Origin: Chloroflexi bacterium CSP1-4
GTDB taxonomy: Bacteria; Chloroflexota; Limnocylindria; Limnocylindrales; CSP1-4
Length of the DNA stretch: 64,000 bases
Direction: 5' to 3'
Assembly: GCA_001443375.1 (NCBI GenBank)
Contig: LDXM01000005.1
Span: 13,388-77,387, forward strand
Shown: in pieces, positions 28,432-49,635 of the stretch
Layout of the letters: each line of letters begins with the position of its first letter
Numbering within the stretch: the stretch's first letter is position 1
Program-made: the position numbers and the translations under genes
Notes under the pieces: generated by a model
The model's database searches: none
What the model was told of the DNA's origin: nothing
Seen by the model: the letters and a program-made list of their open reading frames with translations, nothing else

Positions 28432-28448
28432 GTCGGCTGGACGCTCCC

Positions 28449-33553: not shown

Positions 33554-34822
33554 GTGCCGATGTCGAGTGAAGTTGGCGTCGTGAGCGCCGTGCGCAGCCC
33601 GTTCGGGAAGTTCGGCGGCGCGTTGCGGGACTTCACCTTGCCCGAGCTGGGTGGGCGGGTCGTCGCCGAGGCCATCCGGCGGGCCGGGATCGACCCGGCC
33701 GACGTCGAGGAGGTGGCCACCGGCGTCAACCTCCCGGGAGCCGACCGCTCGATCGCGCGACAGGTGCTGATCGAGGCCGGGATCCCGACGTCGCGCGTCG
33801 CCTACACCATCGATCGGGCCTGCTGTTCCTCGATGGCGGCGATCTCGATGGCATCGCGCTCGATCCGCCTGGGCGACACGAGGATCGCCGTGGCCGGCGG
33901 CACCGAGAACATGAGCCGGGTGCCCTACTTCCTGACCGCGCAACGGTGGGGCAACGCTCTCGGCGACGTGGTCCTCAAGGATCAGCTGGTCATCGCCGAC
34001 CCCATGACGGGCAAGCCCCGCGCCGTCCAGGCGGGGGAAGAGGCCGTCGAGTACGGGATCACCCGCGCCGAGCAGGATGCCTGGGCCGTGCGCAGCCATG
34101 AGAACTACCTGCGGGCCTGGGAGGCGGGCAAATTCGCCGAGGAGATCATGCCCATCTCCGTTCCGCAGCCCAAGGGGGAGCCGCTGCTCTTCACCCAGGA
34201 CGAGTCGGTGCGCCCCGGCACCACGCTGGAGAAGCTCGCCGCGCTGCCCACCATCTACGGCAGCCCCACGGTGACCGCGGGCAACGCCCCGGGCCTCAAC
34301 ACCGGGGCATCGGCGATGGTGCTGATGTCCCCGCAGGAGGCCGAACGACGCGGCACGGAGCCCCTGGCCATGCTGATCGGCTGGGCCATGGCGTCCGGGC
34401 ATCCCGACCGGATCGCGTCGATCCCGGCGGAGTCGGCCAGGCTGGTGCTGGAGCAGGTCGGGATGACCATCGACGACATGGACCTGATCGAGATCAACGA
34501 GGCCTTCGCGGCCGTCCCGCTCGTGTCGACGCTGCTGATGGCCGGCGGCGACCGGGCGAGGGCCGAGGCGATCCGGGACAGGACGAATGTCAACGGCGGC
34601 GCGATCGCCATCGGTCACCCCACCGGCGCGACGGGCGCGCGCCTGGTCATGACCCTGATCTACGAGCTGCGACGTCGCCGCGATGCGGCCGGTGAGAGCC
34701 GGCCCTACCACGGCCTGGCCACCATCTGCGGCGGCATCGGCGAGGCGGAGGCGATCATCGTCAAGGTCGCGGCCCGACGACCGCCGCGCACGGCGTCACG
34801 AGGCCAACGGAGCCGGACGTGA
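33554..34822 (+). CDS. Thiolase (acetyl-CoA C-acyltransferase family)
   Basis: ORF 33554..34822. IDRACCSSMAAI (active-site Cys), NVNGGAIAIGHPTGATG, ICGGIGEAEA. Confidence 0.9.
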   Translation: MPMSSEVGVVSAVRSPFGKFGGALRDFTLPELGGRVVAEAIRRAGIDPADVEEVATGVNLPGADRSIARQVLIEAGIPTSRVAYTIDRACCSSMAAISMASRSIRLGDTRIAVAGGTENMSRVPYFLTAQRWGNALGDVVLKDQLVIADPMTGKPRAVQAGEEAVEYGITRAEQDAWAVRSHENYLRAWEAGKFAEEIMPISVPQPKGEPLLFTQDESVRPGTTLEKLAALPTIYGSPTVTAGNAPGLNTGASAMVLMSPQEAERRGTEPLAMLIGWAMASGHPDRIASIPAESARLVLEQVGMTIDDMDLIEINEAFAAVPLVSTLLMAGGDRARAEAIRDRTNVNGGAIAIGHPTGATGARLVMTLIYELRRRRDAAGESRPYHGLATICGGIGEAEAIIVKVAARRPPRTASRGQRSRT

Positions 34823-36342
34823 CCTCCCTGCGCGCCGACTACGCACCGGACGGCCAGGAGCATGCGGGCGAGTTCCCGTACACGCGCGGGATCAGCGCCG
34901 AGCCGGGGCCGTGGATCATGGGCCAGTACGCCGGCTTCGGCACGGCGGCCGAGACGAACGGGCGCTTCCGGGCGCTTCTCGAGGCCGGGGTCACGGGCTT
35001 CTCCGTGGCGCTGGACCTGCCGACGCAGATGGGCCTCGACTCCGATGATCCGGCCGCGGCCGGGGAGGTCGGCAAGGTGGGCGTCGCGATCGACAGCCTG
35101 GCGGACATCGAGACCCTGATGGCGGGGATCCCGCTCGAGCGGATCAGCCAGATGCGCACGACGGCGAACTCGATCGGCTACATCTGGGCGGCGATGTTCG
35201 TCGCCCTCGCCGAGCAGCGAGGCCTCGACCCGAACGCGTTCGGGATCTTCATCCAGAACGACGTGCTCAAGGAGTACGTCGCCAGGGGGACGCAGATCTT
35301 TCCACCCGCGCCCTCCCTGCGCCTGTCCGTGGACGTGCTCGAGTACGTGGCGCGCCACGTCCCTCGCTGGGTTCCGCTCGCCGTCTCCGGGTACCACATC
35401 CGCGAGTCCGGCTCCGATGCCGTCCAGGAGATCGCGTTCACGTTCGCCAACGCCATCGCGTACCTCGATGCCGCCGTCGGCCGTGGCGTCTCGATCGACG
35501 CGGTCGCGCCAACGCTGTTCACGTTCCTGTCGGCCGACATCGAGCTCCTCCATGAGGTGGCCAAGTTCCGGGCGGCGCGGCGCGTGTGGGCGAAGCTCAT
35601 CCGCGAGCGGTACGGCGCTCGCGACGCGCGGAGTGAGCAGCTGCGCATCTTCGTCTTCACCGCCGGCTCGTCGCTGACGGCTCAGCAGCCGCTGAACAAC
35701 GTCGTGCGGGCGACCGTCGAGGCGATCGCCGCGGCCCTCGCCGGGGTGCAGACGATGCACGTGTGCGCGTACGACGAGGCGGTCGGGGTGCCGACAGAGG
35801 CCGCGGCGACCCTGGCGCTGCGCACGCAACAGATCGTCGCCTTCGAGACCGGCCTGACGGAGACGGTCGATCCCTTCGGCGGCTCGCACGCCATCGAGGC
35901 GCTGACCGCCGAGACCGCGGTGAGCATCGAGGCGCTGCTGGCCGAGATCGAGTCGCGCGGCGGTGCCCTGGCCTGCATCGAGTCGGGCTGGTTCCAGGAC
36001 GAGATCGCCGGGTCGGCCTACCGCCAGGCGCAGGCGGTGGAGGCGGGAGAGAAGCCCGTGATCGGCGTCAACCGGTTCGCGTCCCCCTCGGAGCCGATCG
36101 CCGTGTTTCGCAGCGACCCGGCAGGCGAGCAGCGGCAGCGGGACAGTCTGCGGGCCTTGCGCGAACGCCGATCGCAGTCCGATGTCACGCGGTGCCTCGA
36201 CCTGGTCGAGAGTGCGGCACGCTCCGGGGCGAACGTCGTCCCGGCCTGCGTGGAGGCGGTCAAGGTCTACGCGACGGTCGGCGAGATCGTCGGGCGCCTG
36301 CGTGCCGTGTTCGGAGAGTGGCGCCCGTCGGGCGCGTTCTAA
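34819..36342 (+). CDS. Methylmalonyl-CoA-mutase-family large (substrate-binding TIM barrel) subunit without a B12-binding domain
   Basis: ORF 34819..36342. FPYTRGI...QYAGFGTAAETN...FSVALDLPTQMGLDSD...GVAIDS...IQNDVLKEY...SGYHIRESG...EVAKFRAARRVWA...SLTAQQPLNNVVR...DPFGGS. Ends after the barrel/linker. GTGA overlap with the thiolase. Confidence 0.85.
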   Translation: MTSLRADYAPDGQEHAGEFPYTRGISAEPGPWIMGQYAGFGTAAETNGRFRALLEAGVTGFSVALDLPTQMGLDSDDPAAAGEVGKVGVAIDSLADIETLMAGIPLERISQMRTTANSIGYIWAAMFVALAEQRGLDPNAFGIFIQNDVLKEYVARGTQIFPPAPSLRLSVDVLEYVARHVPRWVPLAVSGYHIRESGSDAVQEIAFTFANAIAYLDAAVGRGVSIDAVAPTLFTFLSADIELLHEVAKFRAARRVWAKLIRERYGARDARSEQLRIFVFTAGSSLTAQQPLNNVVRATVEAIAAALAGVQTMHVCAYDEAVGVPTEAAATLALRTQQIVAFETGLTETVDPFGGSHAIEALTAETAVSIEALLAEIESRGGALACIESGWFQDEIAGSAYRQAQAVEAGEKPVIGVNRFASPSEPIAVFRSDPAGEQRQRDSLRALRERRSQSDVTRCLDLVESAARSGANVVPACVEAVKVYATVGEIVGRLRAVFGEWRPSGAF

Positions 36343-37148
36343 CCCGATGCCGAGGTCAGGAACGCGGCCAGGCACTCGTTGAAGGCCGCGGGCTGTGCGC
36401 TCTGGGGTGAATGGAAGGCGCCCGGGATCACGGCACGTTCGGCGCCGATCCGTTTGGCGAGGACGTCGCATACGTCCTGCAGGCCGGCACCGGCCGTGGC
36501 GCGAGTGGCCGCGCTCGCCGTGTCCCAGCCACCCGAGACCACCAGCTTGGGGAAGGATGCTGTCTCGAGTGCGCCGACCGGTACCTCCGCCTCCCAGGGC
36601 ATGCGCTGGTGCATCGAGGTCCGGATGGCCGCGACCTTGTCGGGAGCGAGGCCGGCGCTGAGCTCTGACCAGGCCCGCAGATGCAGCGTCTCGAGGTCGT
36701 AGCCCATGGCTTGCAGGAATGCCGGATAGAACGCCTCTGGCGTGAGGTCCGCGAGCCTGGCGAAGACGGCGGCGATCCGCTGCTGCATCGCTTGGGCGGC
36801 CGGGCTTCGGGGTGCAAGGTGGAACAGCGGCGGTTCGATGACCACCAGAGAGCGGGCCGCACCGGGCCGGCGTCCGGCGGCGATCAGGCTCGCGACCGCA
36901 CCGTACGAGTGGCCGACCAGGTGGGCGCCGTCGCCGAGGAGTTCGGCGATATCGTCCGCGTCGCGGTCGAAGTCCTCGCCGCGGGTCGGTGGGCTGTCGC
37001 CGTATCCGCGCCGGTCGACGAGGAGCAGGCGGTAGCGGTCGGCGAGCGGCCGCTGCGCGGCCCAGGATGCTCCGCCCCGCACGAAGCTGCCATGCACGAA
37101 GAGTACGGGTTCCCCGTCGCCCCACGTCGTGACGTGCAGCTCGCTCAT
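36339..37148 (-). CDS. Alpha/beta-fold hydrolase
   Basis: Part of ORF 36339..37622, from MSELHVTTWGDGEPVLFVHG. Nucleophile elbow GHSYGA. Confidence 0.8.
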   Translation of the reverse strand: MSELHVTTWGDGEPVLFVHGSFVRGGASWAAQRPLADRYRLLLVDRRGYGDSPPTRGEDFDRDADDIAELLGDGAHLVGHSYGAVASLIAAGRRPGAARSLVVIEPPLFHLAPRSPAAQAMQQRIAAVFARLADLTPEAFYPAFLQAMGYDLETLHLRAWSELSAGLAPDKVAAIRTSMHQRMPWEAEVPVGALETASFPKLVVSGGWDTASAATRATAGAGLQDVCDVLAKRIGAERAVIPGAFHSPQSAQPAAFNECLAAFLTSASG

Positions 37149-37927
37149 CGCCCCCGAGGAACGATCCGCTGCCGCAGGATGCCGACCATCTCGGGACTCC
37201 CGGCATAGAGCGCTTCGGGAACCTTGTCGCGCCCCATCAGGGCCGAGAGGTCGACCGGCCGGCCGGAGGCGTAGACCAGCACCGCGCCGATCCTGTCCAG
37301 CAACAGCGAGGGGAAAGCCAGGTCCCACAGGTTCACGGCCGGATCGAAGAAGAGGCCCGTCACGGCGCCCTTGGCGAGCAGGCACAGCTGGTAGATGGGC
37401 GCACCCAGGCAGTAGATGCGGCCTGGAAAATCGACCGCGAACGTGCGCTGGTAGTTCGTCGGCCCGAAGATGAACGTGTTCGGCTCCAGCGCGGCCGAGA
37501 GGCTCGGGTTGAGCGGCTCGTCGTTGCAGAAGCCCGGGCCGTCTTCGTCGGCCCAGAAGAGTTCGCGCGTGACCGGGTTGACCGCGGCTCCGGCGATGGG
37601 TCGGTCGCCGTCCATGAGGCACACGGCCGGCATCCAGAGGGGCATCCCGGCCACGAACGCGCGGCTCCCGTCGAGCGCATCCACCACCCAGGCACGGGTT
37701 TCCCCCGGCGCCGGCGGCCGCGACTCGGCAGTCTCTTCACCGATGTAGCCGTACCGGGGCGCCAGAGCGGTGAGTGATGACCGGAGGAAGTCCTCCACGG
37801 CCGCGTCGGCCTCGGACGCGATGCTCAGGTCGGCCTTGACCGTGCCGGTCACCCTGCCGTAGTAGCGCAGGGCGAGTTCCCCGGCCTCGGTGACGATCTG
37901 CCGTATGTCCGCGATCGCTGGCGACAT
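37145..37927 (-). CDS. Inositol-monophosphatase-family protein
   Basis: ORF 37145..37927. IGEETAE, WVVDALDGSRAF (variant of WxxDPIDGT), WDLA. Confidence 0.8.
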   Translation of the reverse strand: MSPAIADIRQIVTEAGELALRYYGRVTGTVKADLSIASEADAAVEDFLRSSLTALAPRYGYIGEETAESRPPAPGETRAWVVDALDGSRAFVAGMPLWMPAVCLMDGDRPIAGAAVNPVTRELFWADEDGPGFCNDEPLNPSLSAALEPNTFIFGPTNYQRTFAVDFPGRIYCLGAPIYQLCLLAKGAVTGLFFDPAVNLWDLAFPSLLLDRIGAVLVYASGRPVDLSALMGRDKVPEALYAGSPEMVGILRQRIVPRGR

Positions 37928-38072
37928 TCGGGTCTCCCGCTCAGGTGCGCGGCGAGCCGCAGGTGCTCGTGCCTGACGAAGGCCCGCCCGAAGCGGGCCG
38001 GTCGGACTGGTCAGCAGCGCGCCAGGCGATGATGCTACGGTACGACCTCACGGACAGCACGAGGTGCGGCGG

Positions 38073-39005
38073 ATGAAGCTCGGCGTCTTTCTCCCTGTCT
38101 CGGGTCGGGCGGCGGTGCCCGAGGTGCTCACCGAAGCGGCCCGCCAGGCCGAGACACTGGGTTTCGATTCGGTCTGGGCCGCGGAACGGATGGTCAATCC
38201 CTGGGAGATGACGACCCGCTACCCGTACAACGCGGCCGATACCTGGTTCGTGCCACCGGAAAGCCCCTTCCTGGAGACGTTGACGGCGCTGACCTTCCTG
38301 GCCGGCGTCACCGAGAGGATCTCCCTTGGCGCGAGCGTCATCGTCCTGCCCTACCGACATCCCCTGTTCACGGCCAGGGTGGCTACCTCCATCGACACGC
38401 TGTCCAAGGGACGACTCATCCTCGGCGTCGGGATCGGCTGGATGCCCGAGGAGTTCGAGGCGCTGGGGGTCAACTTCAAGGACAGGGCGGGCATGTCCGA
38501 GGAGCAGCTGCAGATCTTCAACCTGCTCTGGAAGGAGGAGCGGCCGCACTTCGAGGGTCGCTACTACCGTTTCGGCGAGGTGGCCGTCAATCCCAGGCCG
38601 GTCCAGCAACCGCGCTTTCCCATCTGGATCGGCGGGGAAAGCGAGGCGGCCCAGCGGCGGGCGGCCAAGTACGGCGATGCCTGGTTCTCGTATTTCGTGA
38701 AGACGACGGCCGAGGAGCTGGCCGCTCGCTTCAGGCAGCTGCAGCAGTGGGCCACCGAGGCGGGCCGGGATCCGGGTTCGGTCAAGCTCTGTTCCGTTCG
38801 CCCCATCGACGTCACCGCCGAGCCGGTGCCCCAGGAGGAGGACAGCTTGAGGGGCACACCCGAGCAGCTCGTCGAGGCGCTCCGGCGTTTCGAGGACGTC
38901 GGCGTCGAGCACATGGCCCTCCAATTCCATCGCGGCCGCTGGCCCGAGCGGAGGGAGCAGATCGAGAGATTCGGCCGGGAAGTCATCCCGGCCCTGCGCT
39001 CCTAG
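38073..39005 (+). CDS. Luciferase-like (LLM class, probably F420-dependent) oxidoreductase
   Basis: ORF 38064..39005, trimmed to MKLGVFLP (GAGG 9 nt upstream). FDSVWAAERM...GVGIGWMPEEFEALG...PIWIGGES. Confidence 0.85.
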   Translation: MKLGVFLPVSGRAAVPEVLTEAARQAETLGFDSVWAAERMVNPWEMTTRYPYNAADTWFVPPESPFLETLTALTFLAGVTERISLGASVIVLPYRHPLFTARVATSIDTLSKGRLILGVGIGWMPEEFEALGVNFKDRAGMSEEQLQIFNLLWKEERPHFEGRYYRFGEVAVNPRPVQQPRFPIWIGGESEAAQRRAAKYGDAWFSYFVKTTAEELAARFRQLQQWATEAGRDPGSVKLCSVRPIDVTAEPVPQEEDSLRGTPEQLVEALRRFEDVGVEHMALQFHRGRWPERREQIERFGREVIPALRS

Positions 39006-39045
39006 CCGCTCGACGGCCCAGGTCTGCCAGCCGGAAGCGCGAACC

Positions 39046-40596
39046 ATGAGACGTGCCGCCGACGTGCCCCTGTACTACAACGCTATCGACATCCTCGAGC
39101 GCAACCTGGGCGCGCGAGCGGACAAGGTCGCCCTCTACAGCGCGGAACGGACGATGACGTTCGGGCAGGTCTCAGGTGAGGCGAACCAGGTCGGGAACGC
39201 GCTCAGCAAGGCGCTCGGGGTTCGTCTCGGAGACTTCGTGGCGCTCCTGTGCCTCGACGGACCCGAGTGGGTGACGTCCTTCTTCGGCATCGTGAAGGCC
39301 GGCGCGGTGGCCGTCAGCATCAACACCATGGCGACGCCGCGCGAATGCGACTACATCCTGCGCGACTGCCGGGCCAGGGTGCTCATCGTGCACGAGTCCC
39401 TGTTGCCGACGATCGAGGGGATCCGCGCCGGGCAGCCGTCCCTGGAGCACGTCGTCGTCATCGGAGGCTCGGCTCGAGAGCCCGATCTGGCCTATCCCGA
39501 GTTGATCGGCGACCAGGCGACCGAGTTCGTGGCGGCGCCCACGCACCGCGACGACCCGTGCATGCTCAACTACTCCAGCGGCACAACGGGAGAGCCGAAG
39601 GGCATCCCCCATGCCCAGAAGGACCTGCCCCTGACCGCGCAGCTCTACGCCGTCGACGGCATCGGGCTACGAGAAGACGACATCACCTTCAGCGTCGCCA
39701 AGCTCTTCTTCACCTACGGCTCGGGTGGGAACCTGATCTGGCCCTGGTACGCCGGCGCGAGCGTCATCCTGTCGCCCGCCCCGTCCCGCATCGCCACCAA
39801 CCTCCTGGAGACGATCGACCGGTTCAAGCCGACGGTCCTCAACGGCGTGCCGACGAGCTACGCCTCCATGCTGGCCGTCGACCGGTTCACGGAGACCTAC
39901 GACCTTGCCTCGCTGCGCATGTGCCTCTCGGCCGGCGAGGCCCTGCCCGCGGCCATCTGGCACGAGTGGAAGAGGCGCACCGGCCACGAGATCGTCGAGG
40001 GTATCGGGACGACGGAGAACTTCGCCCTGTACCTCACCAACCGGCTGGGCAGCGCGCGCCCGGGCAGCGCCGGCAGGTCGGTCGAGGGCTACGAGATCAA
40101 GATCGTCGACGATGGCGGGCAGGCAGTGCCGAGAGGCCAGGTCGGCAACCTGCTCGTGAAGGGCGAGACCGCCGCGCTCGCCTACCTCCACCAGTATGAG
40201 CGGAGCCACCAGACTTTCCTCGGCGAGTGGCTCGCGACCGGCGACCGCTTCCACGAGGACGACGACGGTTACTACTGGTACGTCGGGCGTTCGGACGACA
40301 TGCTCAAGGTCGGCGGGATCTGGGTCTCGCCGGTGGAGATCGAGAACACCCTGACCGGTCACGTGGCCGTGCGGGAATGCGCGGTCGTCGGCCGCGCGGA
40401 CCAGTCGGACCTGATCAAGCCCAAGGCGTTCGTCGCCCTGCACGCCGGCTACTCGCCTTCCGAGGAGATGGCCCAGGAGTTGATCGCCTACTGTGCTCGG
40501 GAATTGGCGGCTTTCAAGCGTCCGCGCTGGATCGAGTTCGTGGACGAGTTGCCCAGGACCGCGACCGGCAAGCTCCAACGCTCGAGGCTGCGATGA
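39046..40596 (+). CDS. Aryl-CoA ligase of the benzoate/4-hydroxybenzoate-CoA ligase family
   Basis: ORF 39046..40596. YYNAIDILERNL, YSSGTTGEPKG, GIGTTE, GDRFHEDDDGYYWYVGRSDDMLKVGGIWVSPVEIE, TATGKLQR. Confidence 0.9.
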   Translation: MRRAADVPLYYNAIDILERNLGARADKVALYSAERTMTFGQVSGEANQVGNALSKALGVRLGDFVALLCLDGPEWVTSFFGIVKAGAVAVSINTMATPRECDYILRDCRARVLIVHESLLPTIEGIRAGQPSLEHVVVIGGSAREPDLAYPELIGDQATEFVAAPTHRDDPCMLNYSSGTTGEPKGIPHAQKDLPLTAQLYAVDGIGLREDDITFSVAKLFFTYGSGGNLIWPWYAGASVILSPAPSRIATNLLETIDRFKPTVLNGVPTSYASMLAVDRFTETYDLASLRMCLSAGEALPAAIWHEWKRRTGHEIVEGIGTTENFALYLTNRLGSARPGSAGRSVEGYEIKIVDDGGQAVPRGQVGNLLVKGETAALAYLHQYERSHQTFLGEWLATGDRFHEDDDGYYWYVGRSDDMLKVGGIWVSPVEIENTLTGHVAVRECAVVGRADQSDLIKPKAFVALHAGYSPSEEMAQELIAYCARELAAFKRPRWIEFVDELPRTATGKLQRSRLR

Positions 40597-41561
40597 CCTA
40601 CACGCTGCCACTCGACGAGATCGACAAGGACGACGTCCAGCGCTGCGGGGGCAAGGGCGCCAACCTTGGCGAGCTGACCCAGATCGGGGCCCGGGTGCCG
40701 CCCGGGTTCTGTATCACGGCCGACGCACTGGGGTACCTCCTCAGCTCCAACTCGCTCGACGGTCCGATCGCCGAGGTCGCCTCGCGGCTGGACTTCGAAG
40801 ACCTCAATGCCCTCGAAGCGGCCACCGCCGGCATCCGCGGCATGATCGCCTCCGCGCGCGTCCCGACCGACCTGGAGGCGGAGATCCTCGAGCGGTACCG
40901 GGCCCTGGTCAGCGACGCCAACCGGTACGTTGCCGTGCGTTCGTCGGTGGCCGTGAAGGACAGCCCCATCTCGTCCTTCCCCGGGATGATGGACACCTAT
41001 CACTACGTGCTGGGTGAGACCGAGCTGCTCGAGAAGGTCCGCGAATGCTGGGCGTCCCTGTGGACGGCACGCGCCGCGTTCGCCCGGCACCGACAGGGCA
41101 TCGCCCAGGACCGCGGCCTGATCGCGCCGGTGATCCAGCTCATGGTCAACGCCGATACCGCTGGCGTATTGTTCACGGCGAACCCGATCACGGGGGCCAC
41201 GACCGAGATCGTCATCGAATCGAACTGGGGGCTCGGCGAGTCCGTCGTATCGGGCCGGTCGATGAACGATTTCTACGTGCTCGACAAGGCTAACCTCGGA
41301 TTGAGAGAGAGGAGAGTCGCTCGCAAGAACGTGATGGTAACAATGGATCTTGGCAGAGGCTCCGGACGTCTCGAGCAGGCGGTGCCGCCGGAACGGTCCA
41401 GCGAGCCAACGCTTTCGGACGCTCAGCTCGTGGAATTGGGACGCACGAGCAAGGGCATCGAGGACCACTTCGGATTCAACGTCGACATGGAATGGGCCTA
41501 CCAGGACGGGATCCTCTACGTCCTGCAGGCTCGTCGGATCCGACACGTGGGCAAGAACTAG
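40593..41561 (+). CDS. Stand-alone PEP-synthase/PPDK N-terminal ATP-grasp protein (PpsB-like kinase subunit)
   Basis: Part of ORF 40227..41561, from the ATG at 40593 (ATGA overlap with the ligase stop). DVQRCGGKGANLGELTQIGARVPPGFCIT...AVRSS...LWTARA...VQLMV...DMEWAY..G.LYVLQARRI. Confidence 0.85.
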   Translation: MTYTLPLDEIDKDDVQRCGGKGANLGELTQIGARVPPGFCITADALGYLLSSNSLDGPIAEVASRLDFEDLNALEAATAGIRGMIASARVPTDLEAEILERYRALVSDANRYVAVRSSVAVKDSPISSFPGMMDTYHYVLGETELLEKVRECWASLWTARAAFARHRQGIAQDRGLIAPVIQLMVNADTAGVLFTANPITGATTEIVIESNWGLGESVVSGRSMNDFYVLDKANLGLRERRVARKNVMVTMDLGRGSGRLEQAVPPERSSEPTLSDAQLVELGRTSKGIEDHFGFNVDMEWAYQDGILYVLQARRIRHVGKN

Positions 41562-41593
41562 CCGTCAAGCGATGCGACGAAGGAGTACGGATC

Positions 41594-42628
41594 ATGGCCC
41601 AGCGAACGGTCGACTGCCACAATCACTGGTATCCGCCCGACTACCTCGAATACCTGGTCGGTCGGACGGAATTCCCCTACGCGCGCCAGACTGGTCCCAC
41701 CAGCTACCTCTGCTATGCACCCGGCGGCGTCATCGTGGCGCATATCGACCGGGCCGGACACTACGACCTCAAGGCCCGCATCGAGGACCTGGACAAGGCC
41801 GGCCTCGATACCCAGATCATGAGCATCACCATCCCCGGACCGGAGATGCTGCCGGTCAAAGAGGGCATCTATTGGGCGAAGCGGACCAACGACTCCTTCG
41901 CCCGGGCCGTCCAGGACTATCCGGGGCGCTTCTACGCCTACGCGGGCCTGCCGTGGCAGGCTCCCGATGAGGCGGTCAAGGAGCTGGAGCGCTGCCACAA
42001 GGACCTCGGCGTCAAGGGCATCCAGGTCTTCTCCAACGTCAACGGCAAGCCGCTCTTCTTCGATGAGTTCGACCCCATCTGGGCCCTCGCGAACGAACTG
42101 GATCTGCCCTTCCTCGTGCATCCCACCGTGCCCTTGACGGCGAGCGTCATGGACATGGTGCGCATCCCCTACCAGCTGTACGGCTATACGCTCGACACCT
42201 CGATGGCCGTGATCAGCCTCATCTTCAACGGCGTCTTCCAGAAGTACCCGAACCTCAAGGCCGTCCACTCCCATCTCGGCGGCATGGTGCCCTACCTGGT
42301 GCAGCGCCTGAAGGCATCCTGGAAGGGCTACGCCGCGGAGTGGGGCCTGGAACTCGAGGAAACCCCGGACATCACCTATGCCGATCGGGTCTGGCCTGAT
42401 ACGACGTCGTTCTACCTGCCGGCCATGCGCTGCGCCCTGGAGTGGGTGGGCCCGGGGCACCTCGTCGTCGGCACCGACTACGCCCATCGCGTGGGCGATC
42501 CCGAGGGCGCCATCCAGGCCGTCAAGGACCTGGGCGCGTCCGTGAACCTGTCGCAGGACAAGACGGACCTGATGCTGGGCAAGAACGCCGAGGCGCTCTT
42601 CAAGCTCCCGCCGATGCCTGGGCGCTAG
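41594..42628 (+). CDS. Amidohydrolase_2 (ACMSD/gamma-resorcylate-decarboxylase-type) metal-dependent (de)carboxylase
   Basis: Part of ORF 41492..42628, from the ATG at 41594 (GAAGGAG Shine-Dalgarno sequence). VDCHNHWYPPDY (HxH), LVHPTVP, HSHLGGMVPY, VVGTDYAHR. Confidence 0.85.
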   Translation: MAQRTVDCHNHWYPPDYLEYLVGRTEFPYARQTGPTSYLCYAPGGVIVAHIDRAGHYDLKARIEDLDKAGLDTQIMSITIPGPEMLPVKEGIYWAKRTNDSFARAVQDYPGRFYAYAGLPWQAPDEAVKELERCHKDLGVKGIQVFSNVNGKPLFFDEFDPIWALANELDLPFLVHPTVPLTASVMDMVRIPYQLYGYTLDTSMAVISLIFNGVFQKYPNLKAVHSHLGGMVPYLVQRLKASWKGYAAEWGLELEETPDITYADRVWPDTTSFYLPAMRCALEWVGPGHLVVGTDYAHRVGDPEGAIQAVKDLGASVNLSQDKTDLMLGKNAEALFKLPPMPGR

Positions 42629-42741
42629 CACGCCTCAACGGGAGGCCCCGGAGTCGGGCCGCAAGCCCGATTCCGGGGCGCCTTCCTCGGGTAGCTGGCC
42701 GGTGTGTCGACCGGATGCACGGCGGCCGTGAGGAGATCCCC

Positions 42742-44445
42742 ATGCCGACAGACAGGAGCATCAGCTCACTCAGGACACTGAGACCGGATCGCGACGCCGA
42801 CATCTTCTGGTTCAGGGATGACCTGCACCAGCCCTACCCCATCTCGCCGATGGGCATGACGACGATCCAGAAGCACCACGCCTGGGGCTATCACGTCGCT
42901 TCGGAGCAGACGCAGCTGCCGCCCTCGAAGGGCGCGCACGTCAAGCTCTACCGGGGCCGCGTCTACCTGGGCTTCGCCCTGATCGACGATCCGGAGGAAG
43001 TCGCGCGCCGCGCGAAGGCGTTCGGCCAGCTCGTCGAGCACTGCACGGATCACTGGGCGGAGTTCTACGGCGGCTACATCTCGGAGGTGATCGCCAACCT
43101 GGCTTCGCTGGCCGCGGTGGACGGCGACGGCCTGACGACTCCGCATCTTCTCGACTACCTGAACAAGAGCGAGGAGATCAACCGCCGGCATTGGGAGATC
43201 CATTTCATCCTGATGTATCCGGCCGACACGATCTACCTGGAGTTCGAAGCCTTCTGCAGGACGCACGGGGTCGAAGAAGCGGCCTTCGTCAACATGCTCA
43301 AGGGATTCAACTCGATGTCGACGCAGACCGACGAAGGCTTGTGGCACCTGGCCGAGGCGGCGGACAAGGCTGGCCTGCGCGATCGACTGCGGAACACGAC
43401 GGCCGGGATGCTCCGGGATGCGCTCGCGGGTGATCCGAATGGGCGCGAGTGGCTCGATCGTTTCGACGAATGGCTGGAGCGGTTCGGCAACCGCATCAGC
43501 GCCGCGCACCTCGACGTGATCTTCCCGACCTGGAAAGAGGACCCCACGCCCGTCCTCGAGACCATCAACAGCTACTTCGCGCGCATGGACGCCGGCTGGC
43601 ACCTGCTCCAGGCCCGCGACGAGGTGATGCGGCAGCGCGACGAGGTCATCGCGGCCGTCGAGCAGAAGCTCACTGCGGAAGACAAGCTCGTCTTCGAACG
43701 ACTCCTGCCGGCCGCCCAGCAGGTCTACGCCTTCCAGGAAGACCATGGGTTCTACATCGACGCGGGCTCCACCGCCGCCCTGCACAACTCGCTGATGGCC
43801 TGCGGTCGGCGCCTGCATCGCTGCGGCCTGCTCGAACGGGCCGAGGATGTCTTCTTCCTGACCTTCAGCGAGCTGGTCGAGATCCTCGGCGACCTGGCCC
43901 GCGACGAGAAGATCGGCACGTATCACCATCGAGCCCTCGTGCCCTCCCTCGTCGCGGAACGGAAGGAGAACCGGGAAGCGGCGACCGCCCTCGATGCTCC
44001 GCTCACGGTCGGGAACGTCCCATCGACGATGAGCGACCCCATCGCCCTCAAGGTGTTCGGGATCGTCGACGAGGTGCTTCACCCCAAGGGCGAGAAGCAG
44101 ATGGTCGAGCGACTCGAGGGGTTCGCCGGAGCGGCGGGCGTGGTCGAAGGACCGGCGCGCGTGATCCTGAGCTTCGAGGAGTTCCCCACGCTGCAGTCCG
44201 GCGACATCCTCGTCTGTCCGGCCACCAGCACCGCCTGGACGCCGCTGTTCCTGAAGATCGCCGGCGTGGTGACCGACACGGGCGGCATGCTGACTCATGC
44301 CGCGATCGCGGCCCGCGAATACGGGATCCCGGCCGTGGTGGGAACGTGGAATGCCACCAATTCGATCCGCGACGGGGACATCATCAGGGTGGACGGGAGC
44401 GCCGGGGTGGTGCAGGTCCTGGTCCGGGCCGAGGGCCGGGGCTGA
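42742..44445 (+). CDS. Protein with a C-terminal PEP-utilizer phosphohistidine swivel domain (PpsA-like kinase subunit)
   Basis: Part of ORF 42442..44445, from the ATG at 42742 (GAGGAG Shine-Dalgarno sequence). About 470 aa of unrecognised helical N domain, then GPARVI...GDILVCPATSTAWTPLF...VVTDTGGMLTHAAIAAREYGIPAVVG. Confidence 0.85.
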   Translation: MPTDRSISSLRTLRPDRDADIFWFRDDLHQPYPISPMGMTTIQKHHAWGYHVASEQTQLPPSKGAHVKLYRGRVYLGFALIDDPEEVARRAKAFGQLVEHCTDHWAEFYGGYISEVIANLASLAAVDGDGLTTPHLLDYLNKSEEINRRHWEIHFILMYPADTIYLEFEAFCRTHGVEEAAFVNMLKGFNSMSTQTDEGLWHLAEAADKAGLRDRLRNTTAGMLRDALAGDPNGREWLDRFDEWLERFGNRISAAHLDVIFPTWKEDPTPVLETINSYFARMDAGWHLLQARDEVMRQRDEVIAAVEQKLTAEDKLVFERLLPAAQQVYAFQEDHGFYIDAGSTAALHNSLMACGRRLHRCGLLERAEDVFFLTFSELVEILGDLARDEKIGTYHHRALVPSLVAERKENREAATALDAPLTVGNVPSTMSDPIALKVFGIVDEVLHPKGEKQMVERLEGFAGAAGVVEGPARVILSFEEFPTLQSGDILVCPATSTAWTPLFLKIAGVVTDTGGMLTHAAIAAREYGIPAVVGTWNATNSIRDGDIIRVDGSAGVVQVLVRAEGRG

Positions 44446-44576
44446 TCGGGCGCTGCGCGATCCGTGGGGGCCACGACGACGGATCTCACTTCCGTTGACA
44501 ACGCAACTAGGATGGCTCTGCGCGCTCGTCACAGGGAGTGTTCGGAGCGGCGCACGAGGAAGGGAGTGCAACGGTG

Positions 44577-45131
44577 ATGAACCTGGGCAGGGCCGTCGAC
44601 GACTGGGGCGACTACGTCACACGGCACAAGCTGAAGGTGGCCATCGTTGGCGGCCTCGTGGCCACGCATGTGACCACGAACCTGGGCATGTGGTACCACG
44701 GCATCGGGCTGCCCGACCTGAACTTCAACATCCTCAACGGGTACCTCGTGTTCGGGAACGCGGGCATGGACCCGGCAGGGATGAGCGACCCGGTGTGGCT
44801 GACGCTCTTCGGGGGGGTCGTCCACTACGCCATGGGCGTCTCCTTCGCCCTCATCTACGCGTTCGGGATCTACCCGCTGATCCCGATCGCGAACACGATC
44901 CGCGGCAACTTCATCAAGGCGTTCATCTGGGGCCTGATCCTGGCCACGCTCAGCGCGGTGTGGTGGATCAACCTCTTCCCGAATCTCGCCGGCCCGGGCA
45001 CGAGCGCCGGCATCTTCATGACCAACCTGGGAGCCGACTGGTGGAAGTGGCTGGTCGCCGTCTACCTGTGGCACCTCGTGTACGCGTTCAATCTCGGTTC
45101 GTTCTTCCAGCCGAAGGACGTCCCGGCGTAG
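44577..45131 (+). CDS. Small integral membrane protein, aromatic-rich, unknown function
   Basis: ORF 44538..45131, trimmed to MNLGRAVDDW (GGGAG upstream). About 5 hydrophobic helices. Confidence 0.6.
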   Translation: MNLGRAVDDWGDYVTRHKLKVAIVGGLVATHVTTNLGMWYHGIGLPDLNFNILNGYLVFGNAGMDPAGMSDPVWLTLFGGVVHYAMGVSFALIYAFGIYPLIPIANTIRGNFIKAFIWGLILATLSAVWWINLFPNLAGPGTSAGIFMTNLGADWWKWLVAVYLWHLVYAFNLGSFFQPKDVPA

Positions 45132-45146
45132 GAGCCTAGCCAGGGA

Positions 45147-46445
45147 TCAGCGGGAGGCGTCGACCTCGGCCACGGCCTCGCCGAAGAGGCGGACCCCGGT
45201 GTCGATCTCGTCGGCGCTGACGATGAGCGCGGGCGACATGCGTACGGCGTCGTCGCCGGCCTCGAGGATGAGCAGGCCGCGCTGGAAGCTGGCCATGGTG
45301 ACGGCATCGGCGCTGGCCGGCGAGTCGAGCCCGATGCCGATCATCAGGCCCTTGCCGCGTACGTCTTTGATGATGCGGGGGAAGCGCTCGGCCAGCGCGC
45401 GCAGGCCGGCGCGAGCCTGTTCGCCGCGCACGGCCGCGTTCTCGACCAGCTCCGCCTCGAGAAGACGGACCGTCTCGATGAGCGCGGCGCAGGCGAGCGG
45501 GTTGCCGCCGTAGGTCGAGCCGTGGGTGCCCGGCGTCCAGGTCATGATCTCCGCCTTCGCGATCATGCCCGCGATGGGCATGCCCGAGGCGATGCCCTTG
45601 GCCGTGAGCAGGATGTCGGGCTCGACGCCCCAGTGCTGCACTGCCCACATCTTGCCCGTGCGCCCGGCGCCCGACTGGACCTCGTCGGCCACGAGGAGGA
45701 TGCCGTGCTCGTCGCAGATGCGGCGGAGGCGGGGCAGGAAGTCGTCGTCGGGCACGACGTAGCCGCCCTCGCCCTGGATAGGCTCGACGAAGACCGCCGC
45801 GAACTCCTTGGCGGGCATCAGGCGCTTGAAGATGCGCCCCTCCAGCTCGTCGAGGCCGGCGCTGCCGTAGGGCACGTGGTAGACGCCGGGCAACAGGGGC
45901 CCGAAGCCGGCGTGGTACTTCGCCTTGGATCCGGTCAGGCTCACCGCGCCGTAGGTGCGGCCATGGAAGGCGCCGAGGAAGGCGATCACGTTCTGACGAC
46001 CGGTGTGGTGGCGGGCGAGCTTCAGCGCGGCCTCCACGACCTCTGCGCCGGAGTTGCCGAAGAACACGCGCGTCTTGCCCTTCATCGGCGCGATGCGGGC
46101 GAGGACCGCGGCCGCCTGGGCGTAGATGGGCAGGTAGAAGTCGGAGGCGCTGAAGTGGAGCAGGTCGCCCGCCTGGCGCGTGATCGCGCCGACGACGTCC
46201 TCGTGGCTGTGGCCGGTCGAGTTGACCGCGATGCCGGCCGCGAAGTCGAGGAAGCGGTTGCCGTCGATGTCCTCCACCATGAGGCCGTCGCCGCGCACGG
46301 GCACGATGGGGTAGACCCGCGGCAGGCTGGGGGAGGTGACGCTTTCGTCGAAGGCGATGTGCGCGCGGGCCTTGGGGCCCGGCAGCTCGGTCACGATGTC
46401 GGGGACCGGGCGGGTCTGGCTGCGGCGGTCGACGAGCTGCGTCAC
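45147..46445 (-). CDS. gabT: 4-aminobutyrate aminotransferase (class III PLP aminotransferase)
   Basis: ORF 45147..46445. GTG start with AGGAG 7 nt upstream. FAAGIAVNSTGHSH, FFGNSGAE, LLVADEVQSGAGRTGKMWA, TAKGIASGMP, STYGGNP. Confidence 0.9.
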   Translation of the reverse strand: MTQLVDRRSQTRPVPDIVTELPGPKARAHIAFDESVTSPSLPRVYPIVPVRGDGLMVEDIDGNRFLDFAAGIAVNSTGHSHEDVVGAITRQAGDLLHFSASDFYLPIYAQAAAVLARIAPMKGKTRVFFGNSGAEVVEAALKLARHHTGRQNVIAFLGAFHGRTYGAVSLTGSKAKYHAGFGPLLPGVYHVPYGSAGLDELEGRIFKRLMPAKEFAAVFVEPIQGEGGYVVPDDDFLPRLRRICDEHGILLVADEVQSGAGRTGKMWAVQHWGVEPDILLTAKGIASGMPIAGMIAKAEIMTWTPGTHGSTYGGNPLACAALIETVRLLEAELVENAAVRGEQARAGLRALAERFPRIIKDVRGKGLMIGIGLDSPASADAVTMASFQRGLLILEAGDDAVRMSPALIVSADEIDTGVRLFGEAVAEVDASR

Positions 46446-46660
46446 GTGGTCGCTCCTGGGATGGCGGACGGCCGTGACGCCGGGCCTCGTGGGCGTCCCG
46501 GTGCATAGGGTTTATGCAGGGTGGATACTCCGGGCAGTGTAGCAGGCACGGCCACGCAGGGAAGCCAGGTCGAGGCCACACGGGCCGCCTGACGGCGGGC
46601 CGCGTGCCTCCCTCGTGCCGCCTGCCGCCGCCGCCCGGCCCAATTCCCGCTCAACCTCAT

Positions 46661-46670
46661 TCTATGATCG
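46661..46670. promoter_or_regulatory. Motif copy 1, TCTATGATCG
   Basis: Read directly. The extended direct similarity with copy 2 is TTCTATG(A/T)TCG...TCAGGCC. Confidence 0.35.
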
Positions 46671-46753
46671 GTATCAGGCCTTGGCGAGCGACAACAGGCC
46701 GATCGGCGCGGTGTGACGGGAGCTTGTGCCCAAGGGACCCTCCCATTCCGCGT

Positions 46754-46763
46754 TCTATGTTCG
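46754..46763. promoter_or_regulatory. Motif copy 2, TCTATGTTCG
   Basis: Read directly. 93 nt downstream of copy 1. Confidence 0.35.
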
Positions 46764-46819
46764 ACGCGGCCCTCAGGCCAGCCTGCCCATGGGCTTGTCA
46801 CCGACCCTTACCCGCCGAG

Positions 46820-46829
46820 CGAACATAGA
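46820..46829. promoter_or_regulatory. Motif copy 3, inverted (CGAACATAGA, the exact reverse complement of copy 2)
   Basis: Read directly. Confidence 0.35.
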
Positions 46830-46915
46830 TCGCTGACGCGCGCGACGGTAGTACTGACAACGCGGTCGACAGGCCTGGCAGGCGGCTGCGCTCCCCGCCG
46901 TCCCCCCCGCGCGCC

Positions 46916-48496
<1,581 letters not shown>

Positions 48497-48542
48497 CTCA
48501 GTGTCCCCTGGCTCGTCGGGTGGTCGGCGTGAGGGGTCCAGT

Positions 48543-49415
48543 CTAGCGCCGGAGTGCCGTCGCGACCTCCCCGAGGTCGGCCGCCACGGCGTCGGGTCGG
48601 CCCCCGCCACGGGCGCGGGCCGCGGCCCGCGCGAGGTCCTCGTCGCCGTGCTTGCCGCTGCGCACGAAGACGCCCCGTAGCCCGGCCCGCTGGGCGCCGA
48701 GGACGTCGTGCCAGAGGTCGTCGCCGATCATGGCCACGTCGGCCGTGTGGAGGCCCGGGGGGCCGGTCTCGGCCGCCAGCTCCCGCACCGCCTCGAGGAA
48801 GAAGGCCTTGGTCGGCTTGCCCACCACGGTCGCCCGCCGCTCGGTGGCGTACTCGAGGCCCACCACGAGGCCACCCGAGTCGAGCGTCACTCCGCGCTTC
48901 GTCAGCCACCAGCGGTTCTTGTGCATGGCCACGAAGCCGGCGCCCGCCCGCAGGAGCCGGAAGGCGCGGTCGAGGGTGGCGAAGGTCAGCTCGTCGGAGG
49001 CGTCGCCGATGACCACCGCGGCGGCGCGAGCCTCCGGCTGGTCGGCCTCCTCGCCCGTCATCAGGTCGAGGCCCGCGAATTCGGCGCGGGCGTCGGTGGT
49101 GGAGATGAGGAAGATCCGACCACCGGGGTGGCGCCGGGCCACGTGGGCGGCGGTGGCAGAGGCGGCGCTGACGATCCGCTCGATGGGGATATCGAGGCCC
49201 GCGCGCGCGAGGTGCGCGGCGAGCGTCGTGCGGCTGATGGCCGAGGTGTTCGTGGCCAGCCGGTAGGGGACGCCAGCCCGCTCCACGGCCGCCAGTGCGC
49301 CGGCCGCACCCGGGATCTGCCGGCCGCGGAGCACGAGCACCCCGTCGATGTCGAGGAGGAGAGCACGCACGCCCCGGAGGGCGGCGACGAGCTGGGCGGC
49401 GGGCGGCGAGGGCAC
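48543..49415 (-). CDS. HAD-IIA family hydrolase
   Basis: Part of ORF 48543..49898. LLLDIDGVL, ATNTS, VGKP, MIGDDLWHDV. Start uncertain (GTG 49415 or ATG 49487). Confidence 0.75.
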   Translation of the reverse strand: MPSPPAAQLVAALRGVRALLLDIDGVLVLRGRQIPGAAGALAAVERAGVPYRLATNTSAISRTTLAAHLARAGLDIPIERIVSAASATAAHVARRHPGGRIFLISTTDARAEFAGLDLMTGEEADQPEARAAAVVIGDASDELTFATLDRAFRLLRAGAGFVAMHKNRWWLTKRGVTLDSGGLVVGLEYATERRATVVGKPTKAFFLEAVRELAAETGPPGLHTADVAMIGDDLWHDVLGAQRAGLRGVFVRSGKHGDEDLARAAARARGGGRPDAVAADLGEVATALRR

Positions 49416-49635
49416 GCGGCTGATGGTAGGGGAAAAGCGGCCGCGGCCAAGCCGTCCAGCGCGGATCGGCGCATGACCGGTGGGCATGCGAGGCCGGTGG
49501 GTCGTGCGTGGCTGCCGGGCCATTGGAGCCGATCGTGAAGCGGATGAGCACGAGTTCGGGCCGTGGCATGCGGCGTGGTCATGCCCTGGGGGGTCCCGCT
49601 CCGCTCCCACGCCGTTGGGACTAGACTCCGCGCCG

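Follow-up and report, generated by a model that had tools for sequence, protein, structure and literature searches.

A predicted two-subunit dikinase and an ACMSD-fold enzyme in a conserved bacterial gene module, tentatively read as a phosphate-handle pathway for amino- or hydroxyaromatic compounds

What reaction is served by an operon in which the genes for the two subunits of a kinase that resembles phenylphosphate synthase are separated by the gene of an amidohydrolase-fold enzyme and preceded by the gene of an aryl-CoA ligase? The question is raised by a locus of Chloroflexi bacterium CSP1-4 (assembly GCA_001443375.1, contig LDXM01000005.1, positions 13,388-77,387, forward strand), i.e. 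a stretch of 64,000 nucleotides with a G+C content of approximately 70-75%, which we refer to as the window. The five genes of the operon, called A to E, are located at positions 39046-45131; all five are confirmed on the + strand, at the places where a preliminary description of this DNA had listed them, and so is the sequence ATGA in which the start codon of B overlaps the stop codon of A. Lengths are given in amino acids (aa):

A, 39046-40596, + strand: aryl-CoA ligase of the anthranilate-CoA-ligase type, 516 aa (PF00501, PF13193, TIGR02262).
B, 40593-41561, + strand: predicted ATP-grasp (nucleotide-binding) subunit of a two-subunit dikinase, 322 aa (PF01326 PPDK_N, 4e-84).
C, 41594-42628, + strand: metal-dependent ACMSD-fold enzyme, putative (de)carboxylase, 344 aa (PF04909, Amidohydro_2, 3e-36).
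D, 42742-44445, + strand: predicted substrate-binding and phosphohistidine-swivel subunit of the dikinase (His519), 567 aa (PF27448, PF00391).
E, 44577-45131, + strand: small hydrophobic protein, a lineage-specific accessory, 184 aa (no family match).

The operon may be the core of a conserved catabolic module for a polar aromatic compound with an amino or a hydroxy group, in which enzyme C would carry out a carboxylation on a phosphate handle, in the manner of the Hpe pathway; we assign this reading a probability of roughly 40%. The conserved module itself is well supported, and it constitutes a bacterial gene set that has so far been undescribed: none of our literature queries has led to an account of an Amidohydro_2 enzyme in partnership with a Pps-type kinase.

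Homologous loci were collected by a scan of one genome per species, which yielded at least 80 loci (L numbers, below, designate individual loci); the synteny was counted by clustering the open reading frames of 83 non-redundant loci. B, C and D occur together in 51 of the 83, and the order B-C-D is kept in 44 of these 51, so that the location of the amidohydrolase gene between the kinase subunit genes, pointed out in the preliminary description, is a conserved arrangement. The module is found in Chloroflexota, Actinomycetota (Gaiellales, Thermoleophilia), Acidobacteriota, Alphaproteobacteria (Xanthobacteraceae, Rhodospirillales, Roseiarcus fermentans), Desulfobacterota-type lineages and Firmicutes; among its carriers are the strict anaerobes Desulfocarbo indianensis, Desulfatiglandales, Syntrophus, Syntrophorhabdales, Pelotomaculum terephthalicicum and Peptococcaceae. 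Across the phyla, the identity does not fall below 60% for C and 51% for D, and the closest relatives are Limnocylindria-type Chloroflexota (L081, with 89% identity for D, 95% for C and 93% for B; L005, with 88% for D). The synteny of the quartet that had been proposed, i.e. the ligase together with B, C and D, holds for its B-C-D part but not for the ligase: orthologues of A, as well as orthologues of the LLM-class oxidoreductase encoded upstream of A, accompany B-C-D only in Chloroflexota and Actinomycetota. Other lineages have a non-orthologous ligase of the 2,3-dihydroxybenzoate-AMP-ligase type, and in Alpha- and Deltaproteobacteria the LLM enzyme is replaced by an OYE-family enzyme. The partners of the module in the 51 loci that encode B, C and D are the following:

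Inositol-monophosphatase-type phosphatase (InosP) only: 21 of 51 loci.
HAD-type phosphatase only, located between C and D and followed by a 224-aa protein: 23 of 51 loci.
Both phosphatase types: 2 of 51 loci.
Neither phosphatase type: 5 of 51 loci, three of them on short or truncated contigs.
Aryl-CoA ligase: 34 of 51 loci.
OYE: 21 of 51 loci.
F420-dependent LLM-class oxidoreductase: 7 of 51 loci.
Liv-type binding protein: 25 of 51 loci.
Membrane protein of 360 aa, cl37: 9 of 51 loci.
Binding protein and cl37 together: 0 of 51 loci.

Some phosphatase is present in 46 of the 51 loci, an OYE or LLM enzyme in 27, and a binding protein or cl37 in 34; an InosP orthologue is located immediately 3' of D in 31 loci. 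The InosP and HAD phosphatases are nearly mutually exclusive and represent two unrelated families, a phosphatase having been recruited twice independently. The conserved phosphatase, the conserved OYE or F420-dependent reductase and the dedicated importer belong to the module and speak for a logic of the Hpe/Cre type, with the phosphate kept during the middle step.

Several local variations accompany these conserved parts. The HAD hydrolase and the protein of approximately 224 aa, which has no Pfam or NCBIfam match, are always inserted jointly between C and D (L066, at 8131-9637, and 22 other loci), in Deltaproteobacteria, Firmicutes, some Acidobacteria and Gaiellales. The polytopic membrane protein cl37, of approximately 360 aa and without a family (L066, at 4886-5965, L036, L049, L053, L054, L062-L066 and L070), is present only where the Liv-type transporter is absent, and may be an alternative uptake system. 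At three Gaiellales/Thermoleophilia loci (L010, L080 and L085, at about 16.6-21.7 kb), a PaaX-type regulator, two HGD-D proteins and two BcrAD/BadFG ATPases are encoded after the module, a set composed like a class I benzoyl-CoA-reductase-like enzyme. In L004 and L078, the ligase, B and C genes appear to be split by frameshifts within long contigs; adjacent genes show the same damage, which makes assembly errors more probable than pseudogenes.

The identity of the kinase has been examined against three pairs from annotated plasmids: PpsA/PpsB of Azoarcus sp. KH32C (L098), located in a canonical pps-ppc-ubiD-ubiX cluster; the Hpe/Acv-like pair of Rhizobium (L099), encoded with a biotin carboxylase, a HAD protein and an acetoacetate-CoA ligase; and the Cre-like pair of Rhodococcus ruber (L101), encoded with a P450 and HD phosphohydrolases. 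B and D align over their full length with all three pairs. The swivel domain of D (PF00391, 4e-25) covers residues 485-555 and holds His519 in the motif GGMLTHAAIAAREYGIPAVVG; the histidine, within TGGMLTHAAIAAREY, is invariant in 84 family members. Across these members, a conservation of 97% or more is reached at 157 of the 567 positions, to which the N-terminal substrate domain contributes many. Conservation of this extent, with the substrate domain included, argues for one substrate across all lineages. Contrary to what had been stated, the swivel domain is not the only recognisable part of D, because the N-terminal part is recognised by PF27448 (Rph_4th). B matches PF01326 with 283 bits, and its GGK motif (G19-G20-K21) is invariant in 55 family members.

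The split into an ATP-grasp and a histidine-domain subunit, earlier likened to PpsB/PpsA, is therefore found here in full, and the best and sole full-length NCBIfam model of D is of the PpsA type, PRK08296.1-5; the membership of the phenylphosphate synthase subfamily, however, is not borne out. D scores 311 bits on this model, below the cut-off of 578, compared with 809 bits for Azoarcus PpsA (1300 bits on PRK08296.1-4), 772 for the Hpe-like and 745 for the Cre-like subunit; the three reference alpha subunits are 43-45% identical to one another, D is 26-31% identical to each of them, and the D family is internally 53-68% identical. B is 35-40% identical to PpsB and to the HpeI-like and CreI-like subunits, the comparison figure being 41-51%. 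By these comparisons, B and D have the two-subunit Pps-type architecture but form a separate sister clade outside the Pps/Cre/Hpe subfamily, and they would act as a dikinase that converts ATP to AMP and Pi and phosphorylates an aromatic OH or NH2 group. The plasmid collection holds no close relative, with D relatives at most 31% and C relatives at most 35% identical. MarK, also considered, belongs to a different kinase family. A further, distant split-dikinase clade occurs on the Thermomicrobium roseum megaplasmid (L100), with an alpha subunit that is 26-32% identical to D and PpsA and with a xanthine-dehydrogenase-type molybdenum enzyme, a FAH-family protein and a cyclase as neighbours.

The second conserved element, enzyme C, matches PF04909 with 126 bits against a cut-off of 26 and carries the motifs DCHNHWY (from residue 7) and GTDYAH (from residue 293). 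In the PDB, it matches ACMSD, LigW and the gamma-resorcylate, 2,3-dihydroxybenzoate and salicylate decarboxylases with E-values of 1e-31 to 1e-20, the range for ACMSD, LigW and the gamma-resorcylate enzyme being 1e-31 to 1e-24, and IDCase with 1e-15, whereas the hydratases and hydrolases of the family reach approximately 1e-9 at best; no structure of the PDB is nearer to C than ACMSD. The comparison of folds agrees: for the predicted model of C (based on an alignment of 22 homologues, pLDDT 89.5), the top 50 Foldseek matches in the PDB are decarboxylases, save a few chains that were deposited as putative amidohydrolases, with TM-scores of 0.74-0.86, and ACMSD and IDCase rank first (0.84-0.86). 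Judged by its sequence matches and its predicted fold, C is an ACMSD-type enzyme of the decarboxylase family and not a lactonase or a hydratase, which upholds the grouping proposed for it in the preliminary description.

The metal ligands H9, H11, H176 and D295 of C, its catalytic residue H227 and R238 are invariant in the family alignments; H176, H227 and D295 correspond to H174, H224 and D291 of ACMSD, R238 corresponds to ACMSD R235, and the position of ACMSD Arg47 is occupied by an invariant histidine, His50. Additional invariant basic residues of C are R53, R62, R112, R133, R299, H56 and H298. The metal motif HxH is of the type of ACMSD and IDCase; an ExH motif is the mark of hydroxybenzoate decarboxylases. 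The HxH enzymes ACMSD and IDCase act on substrates that carry a nitrogen atom beside the leaving carboxylate, which matches an anthranilate-type product. From these resemblances, we infer that C would catalyse the (de)carboxylation of a phospho-intermediate. Its family is tight, the best 120 database matches being at least 64% identical to C and none of them informatively named.

A second C subfamily (39-41% identity) is encoded at five Desulfatiglandales-type loci (L029, L042, L045, L046 and L082), where D and a HAD hydrolase are present and no B is found within 10 kb; some of these loci add an aldehyde:ferredoxin oxidoreductase and a threonine-synthase-like enzyme dependent on pyridoxal phosphate. 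The oxidoreductase that lies beside D in Desulfatiglandales was considered as a link to benzoyl-CoA and set aside, as it is an ordinary aldehyde:ferredoxin oxidoreductase (1aor, 360 bits) and not BamB (167 bits). Likewise, the terminal 'amidohydrolase' of the Hpe-like cluster of Rhizobium is unrelated to C.

Known carboxylases have been searched for in the window and at the related loci. Across the 64-kb window, tblastn with the E. coli proteins finds no UbiD or UbiX, in agreement with the preliminary description, and tblastn with Azoarcus PpcA, PpcB, PpcD and PpsC has no match in the window; biotin carboxyl carrier protein, biotin carboxylase and carboxyltransferase are absent from the window and from the related loci. 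The 91 related loci are without UbiD/UbiX, Ppc, PpsC or biotin carboxylase, the one exception being L032, which has UbiD/UbiX-like and Ppc-/PpsC-like matches, its UbiD/UbiX genes being located 8-10 kb away on the opposite strand. As no biotin enzyme and no UbiD/Ppc is present, C is the only candidate for the middle step.

The nature of the acid is suggested by the ligase. A matches PF00501 (1e-80) and PF13193 and passes the TIGR02262 model (benz_CoA_lig) with 530 bits against a cut-off of 375, i.e. it falls within the benzoate/4-hydroxybenzoate-CoA-ligase family to which it had been assigned, but it is an orthologue of the anthranilate-CoA ligase AuaEII (PDB 4wv3; 62% identity over the full length, 737 bits, E-value 8e-221) and not of those ligases; its matches to benzoate-CoA ligases reach 365-371 bits. 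Another orthologue of A (67% identical), in an Ardenticatenaceae locus (L094), is part of a tryptophan/anthranilate cluster with tryptophan 2,3-dioxygenase, a fusion of an FAD-monooxygenase and OYE of the 2-aminobenzoyl-CoA monooxygenase/reductase (ACMR) type, an SDR, a crotonase, RidA and an acyl-CoA dehydrogenase. Given the resemblance to AuaEII and the setting of the L094 orthologue, the window most likely encodes the handling of an anthranilate-type acid, and a conversion of phenol to 4-hydroxybenzoate is unlikely, since A is an anthranilate-CoA ligase orthologue. A downstream route in common with the ACMR cluster of L094 was considered and dropped, since the LLM, OYE, SDR and acyl-CoA dehydrogenase proteins are only 27-36% identical and thus uninformative. 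Tryptophan 2,3-dioxygenase, ACMR, RidA and a cyclase are not found near any B-C-D locus, so that a link to tryptophan catabolism is not seen there.

The remaining parts of the proposed pathway are encoded on the 5' side of the operon:

26483-29872, - strand: Liv/HAAT-type ABC importer, with permeases at 26483-27559 and 27556-28431 and ATPases at 28449-29150 and 29144-29872 (PF02653, PF00005).
29900-31312, - strand: periplasmic substrate-binding protein of the importer, 470 aa (PF13458, 1e-31).
About 31442-32305 (start codon unfixed), - strand: enoyl-CoA hydratase/isomerase (crotonase) family (PF00378, 2e-70; tblastn with the L066 crotonase).
32336-33553, + strand: family III CoA-transferase (PF02515, 2e-119).
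33554-34822, + strand: thiolase (PF00108/PF02803; TIGR01930, 380 bits).
34819-36342, + strand: B12-dependent acyl-CoA mutase, substrate-binding large subunit only, 507 aa (PF01642, 4e-173; TIGR00641).
37145-37927, - strand, divergent from the operon: inositol-monophosphatase-family phosphatase, InosP (PF00459, 2e-22).
38064-39005, + strand: F420-dependent LLM-class oxidoreductase (PF00296, 3e-53; TIGR03619, 252 bits against a cut-off of 167).

The LLM protein is an F420-dependent oxidoreductase according to the TIGR03619 model, and its gene, which ends 40 bp upstream of A on the same strand, probably heads the operon. The binding protein belongs to an orthologue cluster (cluster 8) that is present in 40 loci, those of anaerobes included; a PDB search at E<1e-5 gave no homologue of it, and hence no hint of the ligand. 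The family III CoA-transferase also occurs beside the module in L010, L080, L085, L078 and L053. A B12-binding small subunit was not found adjoining the large subunit of the mutase.

The closest model for such a gene set is the Hpe/Acv system of Rhodococcus rhodochrous GD02 and Sphingobium SYK-6, which consists of the HpeHI kinase, the HpeCBA carboxylase, the HpeD phosphatase and the HpeE CoA synthetase. HpeHI is homologous to phenylphosphate synthase, consists of two subunits and transfers a phosphate to the phenolic OH group, the carboxylase accepts the phosphorylated compound only, HpeD prefers the carboxylated phospho-product, and the CoA synthetase acts next (PMC9618137; PMC12167813). The present module would share with it a PpsAB-type dikinase as the first enzyme, a middle enzyme that acts on the phospho-intermediate, a dedicated phosphatase and an AMP-forming CoA ligase, as well as the lack of an O2-requiring step (PMC9618137). 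The two systems differ in that the Hpe carboxylase is a biotin-dependent, three-component enzyme acting on an acetyl side chain, in the place of which the module has the ACMSD-fold enzyme; that HpeD is a NagD-type HAD protein, compared with an inositol-monophosphatase-type or another HAD phosphatase here; that the Hpe subunit genes are adjacent, whereas the gene order here is beta, C, alpha; and that a reductase and an importer are added here, with kinase identities of 26-31% (alpha) and 35-40% (beta).

Other relatives share fewer of these traits. The Pps/Ppc pathway of Thauera, Aromatoleum and Azoarcus (L098) has the split kinase, followed by carboxylation and CoA ligation, and occurs in strict anaerobes too, but the module is without PpsC (a CBS protein), the UbiD-family carboxylase and UbiX, its D subunit scores 311 bits compared with 809-1300 for PpsA, and its ligase type indicates an ortho-amino acid; with a phosphatase present, the phosphate is probably not the leaving group that it is in Pps/Ppc. 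In the CreHI/CreJEF/CreD pathway for 4-cresol of Corynebacterium glutamicum (counterpart in L101), a two-subunit kinase also adds a phosphate handle that a dedicated phosphohydrolase removes, but a P450 oxidation forms the middle step, an HD-domain protein serves as the phosphatase, and both a CoA ligase and an ACMSD-fold enzyme are absent. In the aniline pathway of Desulfatiglans anilini, a Pps-like kinase activates the aromatic amine ahead of carboxylation and thioesterification, as would happen here; its carboxylase is of the UbiD type, its product is 4-aminobenzoate, and an amidohydrolase is nowhere mentioned (PMC7500099). With the ACMSD family, C shares the Pfam family, the (beta/alpha)8 fold, the HxH/H/D ligands, the catalytic histidine and one substrate arginine, but it is only 20-26% identical to its members, has His50 for Arg47 and extra invariant basic residues, and is always encoded between kinase subunits. 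Lastly, in comparison with AuaEII of Stigmatella aurantiaca and the ACMR pathway, the window lacks the oxygenase, the kinase, C and the phosphatase stand in the place of the ACMR gene, and the stand-alone OYE/LLM proteins are only about 27-29% identical to their L094 counterparts.

Put together, the pathway that we favour would begin with the import of the substrate by the Liv-type ABC system, followed by the action of B and D, with the swivelling His519, as a dikinase that places a phosphate on the OH or NH2 group of the substrate. C, a presumably Zn- or Mn-dependent ACMSD-fold enzyme, would then reversibly (de)carboxylate the phospho-intermediate, most likely as a carboxylation beside the amino or hydroxy group, and the InosP-type phosphatase (HAD elsewhere) would strip the phosphate from the carboxylated product, making the unfavourable carboxylation irreversible. 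The retention of the phosphate through the step of C and its subsequent removal are favoured because the phosphatase is conserved and the Hpe pathway sets a precedent. Ligase A would thioesterify the new anthranilate-type acid, the F420-dependent LLM enzyme (OYE elsewhere) would reduce the CoA ester, and the crotonase, thiolase, CoA-transferase and mutase would process the reduced ester further. Candidate substrates are compounds of the 4-aminophenol/hydroquinone type, which would give 5-hydroxyanthranilate or gentisate, and aniline, which would give anthranilate. As carboxylation in this family needs a free ortho OH or NH2 group, and in view of the reductase partner, a para-substituted aminophenol or hydroquinone or an N-phosphorylated aniline is attractive; the reductase brings to mind the aerobic enzyme, the OYE domain of which reduces 5-hydroxylated 2-aminobenzoyl-CoA. 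The assignment of the substrate as an aminophenol, hydroquinone or aniline is a suggestion that draws on such analogies.

Several points weigh against this pathway. The carboxylation by C, and its direction, are suggested by family resemblance only, and the link to the phosphatase by synteny alone. A phosphorylated phenol ring is deactivated for electrophilic carboxylation, so that the model works only with N-phosphorylation or with another OH or NH2 group left free. A neutral phenol or aniline would be a less suitable cargo for the ABC importer than an anion, e.g. an aromatic acid, and neither 4-aminophenol nor aniline is abundant in nature. Ligase and reductase are missing from some loci, partly on short contigs; and the ligases are non-orthologous between lineages, so that the acid may differ among them, though the substrate domain of D is highly conserved.

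The use of the phosphate is also where the favoured pathway parts from the proposal of the preliminary description, i.e. an ATP-dependent activation and carboxylation of a phenolic compound with an ACMSD-family enzyme in the place of UbiD. The kinase, the decarboxylase fold and the lack of UbiD remain in support of that proposal, but a role of the phosphate as the leaving group is disfavoured by the phosphatase. The strict analogue of Pps/Ppc, in which B and D would make phenylphosphate or phenylphosphoamidate, C would carboxylate the ring as the phosphate leaves, and the acid would then be thioesterified, thus appears unlikely: it draws on the PpsAB architecture, on the absence of UbiD/UbiX and Ppc, on the fold of C and on the location of C between the kinase genes in 44 of 51 loci, which suggests the hand-over of a labile intermediate, but a conserved phosphatase, recruited twice, would have no function in it, the ligase type speaks for an ortho-amino acid and not for 4-hydroxybenzoate, PpsC is absent, and the cleavage of a phosphate ester would be unprecedented in the ACMSD family, of which we know no member that cleaves one. 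An equally improbable scheme keeps the phosphate as a handle but lets C work in its usual direction: an imported hydroxy- or amino-aromatic acid would be phosphorylated, decarboxylated (or hydrated or hydrolysed) and dephosphorylated, and its remaining carboxylate thioesterified. The characterised relatives of C are all decarboxylases in vivo, the importer suggests an anionic substrate, and the Cre route (L101; PMC12167813) uses the phosphate purely as a handle; decarboxylation, however, needs no ATP, two ATP equivalents would be wasteful, especially in syntrophs (L066, L054), and the known members of the family require a free ortho OH or NH2 group.

The dedicated importer and the anthranilate-type ligase keep alive another reading, to which we likewise give little credence, namely an ATP-dependent reductive deamination or dehydroxylation: A would act first, on imported anthranilate or salicylate, B and D would phosphorylate the ortho NH2 or OH group of the CoA ester, and a hydride from OYE or F420 would lead, with loss of the phosphoramidate or phosphate, to benzoyl-CoA, while the hydrolysis of the leaving group would fall to C, to the phosphatase or to both, unless C acts as a deaminase. 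The type of the ligase and an importer suited to an anion agree with this scheme, as do the OYE and F420-LLM enzymes, whose families are hydride donors to electron-poor rings, and the class-I benzoyl-CoA-reductase-like genes and PaaX that follow the cluster in L010, L080 and L085. In addition, CoA-transferase III, mutase and thiolase, all encoded in the window, are reminiscent of the indoleacetate route, whose end product is 2-aminobenzoyl-CoA (PMC8360864). Against it, C, the most conserved part, is left without a clear role and resembles a decarboxylase and not a deaminase; tryptophan/kynurenine genes are absent near any B-C-D locus; and the benzoyl-CoA reductase genes are linked to the module in three related loci only. 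The action of a dikinase on a CoA ester would be unprecedented, as we know of no dikinase of this family that uses one; for the anaerobic deamination of 2-aminobenzoyl-CoA, we know of no genes. Even less probable is the opening of a lactam of the 2-oxindole type in indole/indoleacetate catabolism, where B and D would phosphorylate the lactam/enol oxygen, C would hydrolyse the ring and the phosphatase would clear an acyl- or N-phosphate, the system taking the place of the hydantoinase-like enzyme known from the iaa pathway. As in that pathway, a family III CoA-transferase, a B12 mutase and a thiolase adjoin the operon, the kinase has relatives in PigC/RedH, which activate carbonyl oxygens, and the product would be an ortho-aminophenyl acid; but these three genes accompany B-C-D in about 6-7 loci only, the window has no Mo-hydroxylase, C is distant from lactamases and hydantoinases and close to decarboxylases, and A is of the anthranilate-ligase type, not of the phenylacetate- or indoleacetate-ligase type. 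That the kinase is a rifamycin-type phosphotransferase or a true phosphoenolpyruvate (PEP) synthase with coincidental neighbours is effectively refuted: D and B do match Rph and PEP-synthase models and structures, but the matches are partial and far below the cut-offs (for D, 156 bits for Rph and 97 bits for PEP synthase; for Rph, 156 and 240 bits against a cut-off of 999), a PEP/pyruvate domain match to PEP synthase is lacking, the best model is of the two-subunit PRK08296 type, and the synteny with catabolic genes is tight across phyla.

If the phosphate-handle pathway is correct, the module would add to the known ways of continuing after a Pps-type kinase. Aromatic catabolism is known to have three such solutions, namely UbiD-type carboxylases, biotin carboxylases and P450 oxidation; to these, an amidohydrolase-fold partner would add a fourth one, independent of prenylated flavin and of biotin. 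It is conceivable, although we consider it doubtful, that B, C, D and the phosphatase amount to an ATP-driven, cofactor-light carboxylation of aromatic compounds, with CO2 added ortho to the amino or hydroxy group, and thereby to the missing O2-independent carboxylase for compounds of the hydroquinone or aminophenol type or for aniline; soil aerobes have the system in common with strict anaerobes. The carboxylase of anaerobic hydroquinone degradation was called uncharacterised in a 2013 review (PMC3727088). The module could supply this hydroquinone carboxylase or, otherwise, chemistry around 2-aminobenzoyl-CoA. Enzymes of the ACMSD family already attract interest as biocatalysts for reversible carboxylation, and a natural ATP-driven ratchet for a carboxylation of the ACMSD type would show how cells beat the unfavourable equilibrium.

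With regard to the layout of the operon, the gaps A/B, B/C, C/D and D/E measure -4, 32, 113 and 131 bp, and a G+C content at third codon positions of 0.83-0.94 supports coding in all five frames; the scan for promoters and terminators has given no signal above chance. E has an alternative GTG start at 44538 and three to four hydrophobic spans in all (among them residues 73-108, 110-138 and 159-177), no Pfam or NCBIfam match, and orthologues only in the closest relatives (L004, L078, L081 and L088); compared with the membrane protein cl37, it has proved not to be homologous. The G+C content across 38000-46000 is 0.655-0.674, as opposed to 0.69-0.75 in the flanks, and this lower value over the operon fits a lateral acquisition of the module.

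Around the operon and its partners, a few further features are present. The stretch of approximately 800 bp between the stop codons of the mutase and the phosphatase (36343-37144) has no convincing open reading frame or family match; in the Gaiellales relative L085, the two genes overlap. On the 3' side, a class-III aminotransferase, an aldehyde dehydrogenase and a HAD-IIA hydrolase (45147-49535, - strand) converge on the operon. The HAD-IIA protein consists of Hydrolase_6 and Hydrolase_like and belongs to the NagD family, i.e. the family of the Hpe phosphatase HpeD; HAD-IIA genes are also located near the module in L036, L042, L046, L066, L081 and L082, of the close relatives, L088 has all three genes, and L004 has those of the aldehyde dehydrogenase and the HAD-IIA protein. 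Beside the importer, positions 22201-26461 encode a protein similar to the alpha subunit of D-lysine-5,6-aminomutase, a LiaF-like membrane protein, a two-subunit CoA-transferase of the CoA_trans A/B type and a universal stress protein. Farther away, a pentose-phosphate block (56815-63969, - strand) that is unconnected to the module comprises 6-phosphogluconolactonase, OpcA, a 6-phosphogluconate-dehydrogenase-like protein, a PGI-like protein and the C-terminal part of a transketolase.

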